DNA of 64,000 nucleotides from Octopus vulgaris. Its lineage: Eukaryota. Position numbers and translations under genes: made by a program. The number at the start of each line of letters is the position of its first letter. Position 1 is the first letter of the stretch. The notes under the pieces are model-generated. The model was not told the origin of the DNA, searched no databases, and worked only from the letters and a program-made list of their open reading frames with translations. The stretch lies in NCBI GenBank assembly GCA_951406725.2, contig OX597842.1, forward strand, positions 32,674,001 to 32,738,000, in the 5' to 3' direction. Of the stretch, positions 28,087 through 30,861 are shown piece after piece.

Positions 28087-28460
28087 AGGCGCAGGAGTGG
28101 CTGTGTGGTAAGTAGCTTGCTAACCAACCACATGGTTCCGGGTTCAGTCCCACTGCGTGGCATCTTGGGCAAGTGTTTTCTGCTATAGCCTCGAGCCGAC
28201 CAATGCCTTGCGAGTGGATTTGGTAGACGGAAACTGAAAGAAGCCTGTCGTATATATGTATATATATATATGTATGTGTGTTTGTGTGTCTGTGTTTGTC
28301 CCTCTAGCATTGCTTGACAACCGATGCTGGTGTGTTTACGTCCCCGTCACTTAGCGGTTCGGCAAAAGAGACCGATAGAATAAGCCCCGGGGTTGAGCTG
28401 CTTGATTAAAGGCGGTGCTCCAGCATGGCCGCAGTCATATGACTGAAACAAGTAAAAGAG
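28087..28460 (+). mobile_element. SINE family A, full length (small internal deletion)
   Basis: AGGCGCAGGAGTGGC head through the AAGTAAAAGAG tail. Confidence 0.92.
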
Positions 28461-29036: not shown

Positions 29037-29227
29037 CATACATATATACAGACTCACACAAGCACAAACACACACACATATATATAGCGATGGAAACTAT
29101 ATACATACAAATTACTCCCCACCCCCCCCGGAATATGGTATATACACTCACTACCCATGTTATACAGCTGACGTCTCAATACGAAATGCTGTATCATAAA
29201 AATCTGTCCTGGCTGAACTATCTAGAG

Positions 29228-29428
29228 CAGTGCTTTTCAAACTTTTGGCTGGAGCGGAACCCCAAGGAAACATTCCACTGGCTCGAGGAACCCCTGTGCA
29301 ATAATTTAATAGTCTTATGCACACATATTTGCACAGGAGAATTAAAAATTACTGCCGATTTTAGCAGTTTTGTAACTTCTTGTGGAACCCCTGCACTGTA
29401 CTGGCGGAACCCTGGTTGAAAACTACTG
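29228..29428 (+). mobile_element. hAT (Charlie-like) MITE, copy 1
   Basis: 201 bp; TIRs CAGTGCTTTTCAA / TTGAAAACTACTG; flanks ATCTAGAG (left) and GTCCAAGG (right). Confidence 0.88.
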
Positions 29429-29811
29429 GTCCAAGGTATAAGAATATCCATTCTTACTGCCAGTATCATTTGCCTATGTTTCCAGTAGCGATTATAGGTT
29501 CATTATTGGCAGGTTTACTCTGTCGGCTCATCGACCAGTTGGGAAATGTTGAATGACCTAAAATGCTACTTCCATCAGAACCATGATGTACAATAACTTT
29601 GGACCCTGCCACAAGAATACACAAAGTTCTTTATCAATCTATACCATGGTGTTTGCCTGGTGTACAAACAGAAAGCATGGATTGATAATCTCTCACTAAT
29701 AACACACTCTCTCTCTGTCTACATGTATACACATAGACCAGCGGGATGTATATATATATATATACATATAAAAAGGTAAGTAGAGTTTGTGGTTGGAGTA
29801 ACCGTCTAAGG

Positions 29812-30012
29812 CAGTGCTTTTCAAACTTTTGGCTTGAGCGGAACCCCAAGGAAACATTCCACTGGCTCGAGGAACCCCTGTGCAATAATTTAATAGTCTT
29901 ATGCACACATATCTGCACAGGAGAATTAAAAATTACTGTCGATTTTAGCAGTTTTGTAACGTCTTGCGGAACCCCTGGACTGTACTGGCGGAACCCTCGT
30001 TGAAAACCACTG
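29812..30012 (+). mobile_element. hAT (Charlie-like) MITE, copy 2
   Basis: 201 bp; TIRs CAGTGCTTTTCAA / TTGAAAACCACTG; flanks GTCTAAGG (left) and ATCTAGAG (right). Confidence 0.88.
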
Positions 30013-30119
30013 ATCTAGAGAATGTCTACAGAAATAAGCTTAAAAAATAATGTTAATAGCACTGCTAACACAGTAGGATGTAGTACTGACCTATAAAAGT
30101 ATTTGATATACTTTATAGT

Positions 30120-30465: not shown

Positions 30466-30861
30466 TCTTTTTCTTGTTTCAGTCATATGACTGCGGCCAT
30501 GCTGGAGCACCGCCTTTAGTCGAGCAAATCCACCCCAGGACTTATTCTTTGTAAGCCTAGTACTTATGCTGTCGATTTCATTTGCCGAACCGCTAAACAC
30601 ACCAGCATCGGTTGTCAAGCAATGCTAGGGGGACAAATACAGACACACAAACACATACACATACATACATATACATATATACACATATATACGACAGGCT
30701 TCTTTCAGTTTCCGTCTACCAAATCCACTCACAAGGCTTTGGTCGGCTCGAGGATATAGTAGAAGGCACTTAAGGCACTTGCCGAAGGTGCCACGCAGTG
30801 GGAGTGAACCCGGAACCATGCGGTTCGTAAGCAAGCTACTTACCACTCAGCCACTCCTACA

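Follow-up and report, generated by a model that had tools for sequence, protein, structure and literature searches.

Exchanged target-site duplications at a pair of hAT-type MITEs in Octopus vulgaris, and related spacers confined to single chromosomes

How can two neighboring transposon copies be flanked by 8-bp duplications that match across the pair and not around either copy? The question is raised by a locus in the window, the 64,000-nucleotide stretch C29:32,674,001-32,738,000 of the Octopus vulgaris assembly analysed here, in which a reading made from the sequence alone had described a pair of MITEs with the outer 8-mers alike, the inner 8-mers alike and neither copy within a duplication of its own. 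Checked base for base, the order at 29220-30020 is A-MITE-B'…B-MITE-A, just as that sequence-only reading had it (Table 1). The 8-mers on the two sides of each copy differ at 4 and 3 positions, and the two copies, both 201 bp, are 96% alike with 8 substitutions. The spacer between them measures 383 bp, or 367 bp between the inner 8-mers. Under the target profile of the family, the probability is 0.007 for the outer and 0.001 for the inner 8-mers, and the structure is real and beyond chance. The inner 8-mer is the genuine duplication of two donor copies elsewhere in the genome, with a private change accounting for the C in GTCCAAGG.

Table 1. Features of the locus with exchanged duplications (positions in the window)
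Feature	Position	Strand	Remarks
Outer target-site duplication A, left (ATCTAGAG)	29220..29227	+	Inside an older dispersed repeat; other copies of the repeat cross the empty site
MITE copy 1, 201-bp type	29228..29428	+	Variants T20G, C102T, C156T, G167C, C197T; 3′ half like the donor lineage
y, donor right flank, 52 bp	29429..29480	+	Begins with donor duplication B' (1 private change)
B' (GTCCAAGG)	29429..29436	+
TGTT, 4-bp microhomology	29477..29480	+	Passage from right to left flank (permutation point); crossed by a contig of run X1
x, donor left flank, 335 bp	29477..29811	+	Comprises an older repeat, a short microsatellite and the beginning of another older repeat; last 8 bp are B
Empty 15-bp site	29504..29518	+	Donor paralogues have a SINE here between two copies of the 15-mer
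Donor duplication B (GTCTAAGG)	29804..29811	+
MITE copy 2, 201-bp type	29812..30012	+	Variants T20G, G24T, C128T, T150G, G187C; without C102T, C156T, G167C
Outer target-site duplication A, right (ATCTAGAG)	30013..30020	+

Identity of the element and its surroundings

On its sequence features, namely the duplication, the nnnTAnnn target, the short inverted ends, the size and the copy number, the element is classed as a hAT (Buster-type) MITE. Of the single copies in a family search of 30 loci, 23 of 23 are flanked by 8-bp duplications with at most one mismatch, as are 34 of the 35 complete single copies on C1 and C2; this upholds the earlier assignment to a hAT-type MITE with 8-bp duplications. 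The inverted ends are imperfect, about 15 bp long and begin with CAGTG. Elements range from 179 to 219 bp, in forms of 219, 201 and 179 bp that are set apart by deletions between short direct repeats, and an internal 26-mer has 1710 exact matches in the 2.8-Gb assembly (227 contigs). TRIMs, the miniature LTR elements, have TG...CA direct repeats with a 5-bp duplication; this candidate was rejected on account of CAG...CTG repeats, 8-bp duplications and the mostly solitary occurrence of the copies. The target consensus (T at position 4 in 63/68 sites, A at position 5 in 66/68) led to the Buster-type assignment, nnnTAnnn being the Buster signature in the accessible text of PMC3517528. Buster-family MITEs such as Mar of Drosophila have short imperfect inverted ends starting with CAG and an 8-bp nnnTAnnn duplication, and Mar and the octopus element are alike in all of these as well as in being short and non-coding. 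They differ in that no arrays are described for Mar in the accessible text of PMC3517528; an autonomous partner of the octopus MITE was not found at the best 20 of 122 loci matching DUF4371, where the stretches read for a transposase with the MITE's ends stopped before the 3′ ends of the elements. A young family with DUF4371 (hAT-type) frames of up to 720 aa was seen among these (L312-L331), its members 96-99% alike over 3.2 kb and their ends unrelated to the MITE over the portion read.

Within 20 kb around the locus, reading by eye gave no sign of function; low-complexity frames, one SINE piece and one short frame resembling a retroelement were all that it showed. An inverted pair of 130 bp (28171-28300 and 30642-30771, 87% complementary), probably two SINE pieces, brackets the locus at 2.3 kb. 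Elsewhere (L292-L297 on C2, C3, C4, C13, C20 and C21) each arm of a larger foldback repeat holds a 5′-truncated MITE copy, the two spanning 660-675 bp from end to end. Inverted pairs of about 670 bp had been candidates for composites and were rejected, as they are MITE fragments within the arms of this repeat.

Donor loci and the make-up of the pair

The sequence-only reading had proposed that the cargo came from another locus, that a donor with the order x-B-MITE-B-y should exist and that the cargo would be circularly permuted relative to it, with a unit of about 580 bp. A search of the assembly with the spacer, in which the best 40 of 434 candidates were scored, confirmed each of these expectations. 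Two of the seven close paralogues among those 40, L122 (C29:31.14 Mb, 1.56 Mb away) and L121 (C20:23.13 Mb), hold spacer positions 49-383, a MITE and then spacer positions 1-52, with GTCTAAGG on either side of the MITE. The cargo is the 52-bp right flank of the donor followed by its 335-bp left flank, the two being joined at TGTT, and the permuted unit comes to 584 bp. With up to 2 mismatches allowed, the x-B-MITE junction is found three times in the assembly, at the two donors and in the window only, and each 9.9-kb donor stretch holds one MITE. The TGTT by itself is weak evidence, 2% of random junctions having at least 4 bp of microhomology.

The remaining five paralogues are without the MITE region. 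These young copies (L116-L120, at C20:22.84-23.20 Mb and C13:23.9 Mb) have a common breakpoint right before the MITE site and hold no MITE. In six of the seven paralogues a SINE lies between two copies of the 15-mer, and the seventh starts at the SINE end; the cargo has the empty site. The cargo may have been copied before the SINE arrived, or the SINE may have been cleanly deleted, and either donor paralogue may be the source. About the same distance (6-7 substitutions in 197 bp, not rootable) separates the cargo, L122 and the C20/C13 group from one another, and of the four states common to the cargo and L122, three are ancestral and the fourth is not readable.

Variants called against the family majority suggest that the two window copies differ in origin. 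L121 has C102T, C128T, C156T and G167C among nine changes; it is of the 219-bp type and both window copies are of the 201-bp type. C102T, C156T and G167C occur together in only 2 of 193 units, copy 1 and L121, and none of 35 unselected singles has two of the three, although the position of C156T is a CpG site, which weakens this marker. Copy 1 differs from L121 at 7 sites and copy 2 at 11. The donor-like 3′ half of copy 1 adjoins the donor right flank, whereas the 3′ half of copy 2 is not donor-like. The window pair thus looks chimeric, which favors homology-driven copying into a resident MITE over a composite made by transposase. Against chimeric copying count the 219-bp length of L121 and two variants. 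T20G is in both window copies and in neither donor, and only 3 of 101 units have it, two of them being the window pair; the model therefore needs either a return before base 20 or later conversion between the neighbors. C128T is found in L121 as well as in copy 2. A further point against the model is that L122, the nearer donor, has no C102T; its loss of bases 155-177 makes two of the markers unreadable there.

Routes to the exchanged duplications

The reading that we favor, with moderate confidence, is that the locus arose by repair copying from a donor into an already resident MITE via shared sequence. A single MITE would have entered at ATCTAGAG and become the resident. A break or stalled fork in this copy would then have led to a template switch to the donor, and copying would have left the donor's right end via B and the 52-bp flank, passed over TGTT into the 335-bp left flank, run through B back into the MITE and finally returned to the resident copy. 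Alternatively, the junction could have been read off a donor that was tandemly duplicated or circular. Transposase would be unneeded after the initial insertion. A tandem donor, a circle and two-ended gap repair all give the same product and are indistinguishable here; a free circle is not needed. Tandem duplication in place does occur in the family, as at L291 (C22), which has four identical 8-mers, and the template state that the model needs therefore exists. Recombination into a resident copy is the best fit among the routes offered by the sequence-only reading. A replicative cointegrate, or a composite that moved by way of its outer ends, fits less well, because both predict two donor-type copies and only copy 1 has the donor-lineage variants. 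No single-MITE or empty allele of the window site was seen in 8 public runs, in which organisms B, F and G are without cover of 29085-29120, which makes the missing junction in them uninformative. A joint of 29163 to 30054, present in 4 runs, was not counted as an empty allele, its short side being 23 letters that also fit other copies of the older repeat.

A composite made by transposase is the alternative with the closest published outline, and we regard it as possible but unlikely. Here a hAT transposase would have paired the left end of one sister copy with the right end of its partner, or acted on a tandem donor's outer ends, the product being inserted at ATCTAGAG with its flanks joined at TGTT, and copy 2 would have been converted later. 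The perfect outer duplication fits nnnTAnnn, both window copies are of the 201-bp type with T20G, a donor paralogue lies as near as L122 on C29, and L291 is an in-place tandem duplicate of the kind required. Local hopping could also confine families to one chromosome. Against this, copy 2 lacks three donor-lineage variants, so that an additional conversion spanning no less than 66 bp must be invoked; the near-identical spacers on C24 and C28 lie between unrelated bodies, whereas co-transposition predicts shared ones; and no transposase with the MITE's ends was found at the DUF4371 loci read. In the accessible text on composite insertions of maize Ac/Ds, these are made from reversed ends of two separate elements, need transposase and carry 14-24 kb of cargo (Zhang et al. 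2014, PMC4270019). The likeness lies in outward ends within one 8-bp duplication and in two flanks fused at 3-4 bp of microhomology, at 13 kb to at most 1.7 Mb from the donor. The octopus locus differs in having one donor element, one donor-like copy and a cargo of 0.4 kb (compare PMC4270019). Reversed ends of two nearby donor elements were not found, there being one MITE in each donor stretch, and of the two element parts copy 2 is not donor-copied, although later conversion could mask a donor origin.

The other explanations are weaker still. Hobo is a hAT element like the one studied here. A hobo array at one locus belongs to the tandem transposons for which double insertion at one site or a rolling circle has been described, the junction being the site's own duplication (McGurk and Barbash 2018, PMC5932611, accessible text). 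We think it very improbable that the window pair arose by double insertion or by transposase-driven insertion of a rolling-circle concatemer of an excised MITE. The literature describes each as a source of tandem transposons, and a TAGAC-rich tract at C28:27.69 Mb may be where the 33-bp spacer discussed below began by such a route. Double insertion, however, predicts the site's own duplication between the copies, and the window has instead the inner GTCTAAGG, foreign to the outer ATCTAGAG, with 367 bp of donor flank; a concatemer predicts two donor-type copies, and copy 2 is not of that type. More generally, whole DNA-transposon copies standing head to tail, in numbers that unequal exchange can change, are common to the tandem transposons of PMC5932611 (accessible text) and the octopus arrays, whose junction differs in being foreign and common to up to 37 loci of a chromosome. 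We give less credence again to an assembly artefact. The region is repeat-rich, and among the contigs listed from public runs none spans the whole structure and none bridges the two right-hand junctions, but 8 sites distinguish the copies, private changes are present in the cargo and a 115-bp contig of public run X1 covers 29404-29518 with 1 difference, crossing the end of copy 1, B' and the permuted junction. Contigs of runs X1 and X2 also extend across the left flank, A and the MITE start, with the caveat that these runs may be the assembly's own source. Two independent insertions into native sequence, with 8-mers alike by chance or mutation, can be practically dismissed. Neighbors that each have their own duplication do occur at C1:208.89 Mb, and the target preference is strong. 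The spacer, however, is not native: the older repeat that holds A has other copies, and these continue through the empty site without the cargo, and the spacer is the permuted flank pair of donors that have B on both sides of their MITE. These donor loci rule out the case that the sequence-only reading had named as its own refutation.

Repair copying into a resident MITE also has a counterpart in the gap repair of P elements, where the two ends of an excision break each copy beyond the limits of an ectopic element before being joined. This would give the same product; in the octopus the break may have another cause. Exchanged duplications by themselves are no proof of a composite transposon.

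Spacers confined to single chromosomes

The sequence-only reading had suggested that further pairs with exchanged duplications might exist in the genome, and they were found, on C28, C24 and in other arrays. Besides the window, 6 of 30 loci are pairs or arrays (C19, C27, two on C28, C29 and C30) in a search that favors arrays; among 37 unselected loci on C1 and C2 there were none. The cargo of the window is single-copy, unlike the spacers on C28 and C24. A 33-bp spacer has 88 of its 89 matches on C28. The 38 loci analysed, 37 of them on C28, have 36 different left 8-mers, and their outer 8-mers differ by 0, 1, 2, 3 and at least 5 mismatches in 20, 9, 4, 1 and 4 loci, hence by none or one in 29 of the 38. 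All 10 matches of a 45/69-bp spacer, at 9 loci, are on C24; its two ends are not matching 8-mers, and the outer 8-mers match in 8 of the 9 loci with at most one mismatch, those of the remaining locus being shifted by 1 base. A third spacer has its 4 matches on C27. A cargo of 165 bp, permuted relative to an older repeat, is present at 4 loci, all on C28, and the three complete ones each lie in their own duplication. In some arrays two spacer types stand together.

Several individual arrays were also noted. The sole match of the 33-bp spacer off C28, at L169 (C24:26,782,849), lies in an array that holds the C24 spacer as well. L164 (C28:27,690,925) is a ten-unit array in a TAGAC-rich tract with outer flanks that resemble the spacer 8-mer, and is a candidate founder of the 33-bp spacer family. 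In the five-unit array L337 (C24:31,063,552), the 69-bp spacer alternates with a 150-bp cargo that is flanked by ATCTAGAG on both sides. Arrays with (AT)n or mixed-microsatellite spacers were seen at C19:44.20 Mb, C27:10.28 Mb, C29:31.96 Mb, C30 (4 loci) and C34, most of them within a matching outer 8-mer.

Arrays that moved as complete units should have bodies as similar between loci as their spacers, and this is not what was observed. In the 33-bp spacer family (C28/C24), the spacer, counted only at positions not fixed by the search pattern, diverges by 0.8% per site and the bodies by 2.0% without CpG sites (p=0.02). In the C24 family the values are 3/573 (0.5%) and 50/2506 (2.0%), CpG sites included (p=0.012). 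These comparisons are to be read with the provisos that body divergence takes in subfamily variants older than insertion and that the spacers' inner repeats may homogenise the spacers. For the 165-bp cargo, pairwise counts are 19/990 in the cargo against 66/1821 in the bodies, the pairs not being independent. Different C28/C24 loci share variants in their first units at nearly the level of unrelated singles (11.9% and 10.8% of pairs), as against 46% for units within a locus. Spacer divergence is near the mismatch rate in duplications of C1/C2 singles (1.1%), and its difference from outer duplications with at most one mismatch is not significant (p=0.11). A14T is in 87 of the 104 units behind the 33-bp spacer and in 2 of 37 first units, a pattern that on its own fits both models, since a founder array with an A14 first unit would give the same.

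Two one-sided captures, each with a single donor flank and a terminus within a MITE at short homology, were seen as well. At L133 (C28:3,720,685), 219 bp come from L127 (C28:3,665,733), 55 kb away, and end within the MITE; the captured piece includes the start of a C2H2 zinc-finger frame, as read by eye. The flank-versus-body test at this locus (C28:3.72 Mb) gave p=0.13. Another capture, at C28:14.575 Mb, took 250 bp from a neighbor 6 kb away and was rejoined within the MITE at TGG. For L229, divergence from the donor is greater in the MITE body (14/175 positions) than in the captured flank (8/249; p=0.04).

An existing junction likely spreads to other copies of its chromosome in the same way as it was made, by copying into residents, and unequal exchange likely alters copy number. 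We tentatively propose, at somewhat less than even confidence, that dispersed MITE copies serve as landing pads on each small chromosome, where a junction born once would copy itself into residents as a selfish unit without transposase, stay on its chromosome, stack with other spacers and carry host DNA, including zinc-finger coding pieces. It is usually hard to trace how tandem repeats at many sites of one chromosome originated. In this case the 8-bp duplication and private variants preserved at each site allow donor, acceptor and the order of events to be read. If the proposal is true, a dead transposon family could in this way give rise to dispersed satellites specific to a chromosome, the resident's own duplication dating each event, and short MITE copies would go on moving host DNA, across distances of 6 kb to many Mb, once transposition has ceased; this has a bearing on the small chromosomes of this genome, which are rich in zinc fingers. 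For sister species, the predictions of gene conversion, circles and local hopping differ.

The closest known process is dispersal of Rsp-like satellite DNA into 1.688 clusters already present on the Drosophila X, in which a junction born of microhomology is found at many loci of one chromosome and for which interlocus gene conversion or eccDNA has been proposed (Sproul et al. 2020, PMC7403614, accessible text). Like it, the C28 and C24 families have one microhomology junction common to many loci of one chromosome. The octopus case differs, as far as that text extends, in that the landing pad is a dispersed DNA transposon of 201-219 bp at a site marked by its own duplication, the cargo is donor flank and each of several chromosomes has its own spacer. 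The prior resident is shown by synteny in Drosophila, whereas in the octopus it is deduced from chimerism and relative divergence. Ectopic unequal exchange is covered, as is extrachromosomal integration at local homology, in the accessible text of a 2025 review of routes from transposon to satellite (PMC12628747), and that text describes no shared spacers spreading among MITE sites; no published account of this spacer pattern was found in the open-licence literature. The single locus is modest, and more weight falls on the chromosome-limited families, a probable variant of known repair-driven repeat spread.

Copying among residents would have left some of them unconverted. Two single MITE copies persist in 570 kb of distal C28, in stretches picked between known arrays, and one has A14T; conversion, if conversion it is, is therefore incomplete. 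As a weak test of conversion against local hopping, density along C28 was sampled, and 7 of 131 right ends lie on this chromosome, 2 of them distal (both arrays) and 5 central. On the smallest chromosomes the density of the MITE right end is several-fold higher, with 32 of 132 matches beyond C26:2.07 Mb (C26-C30 and unplaced contigs).
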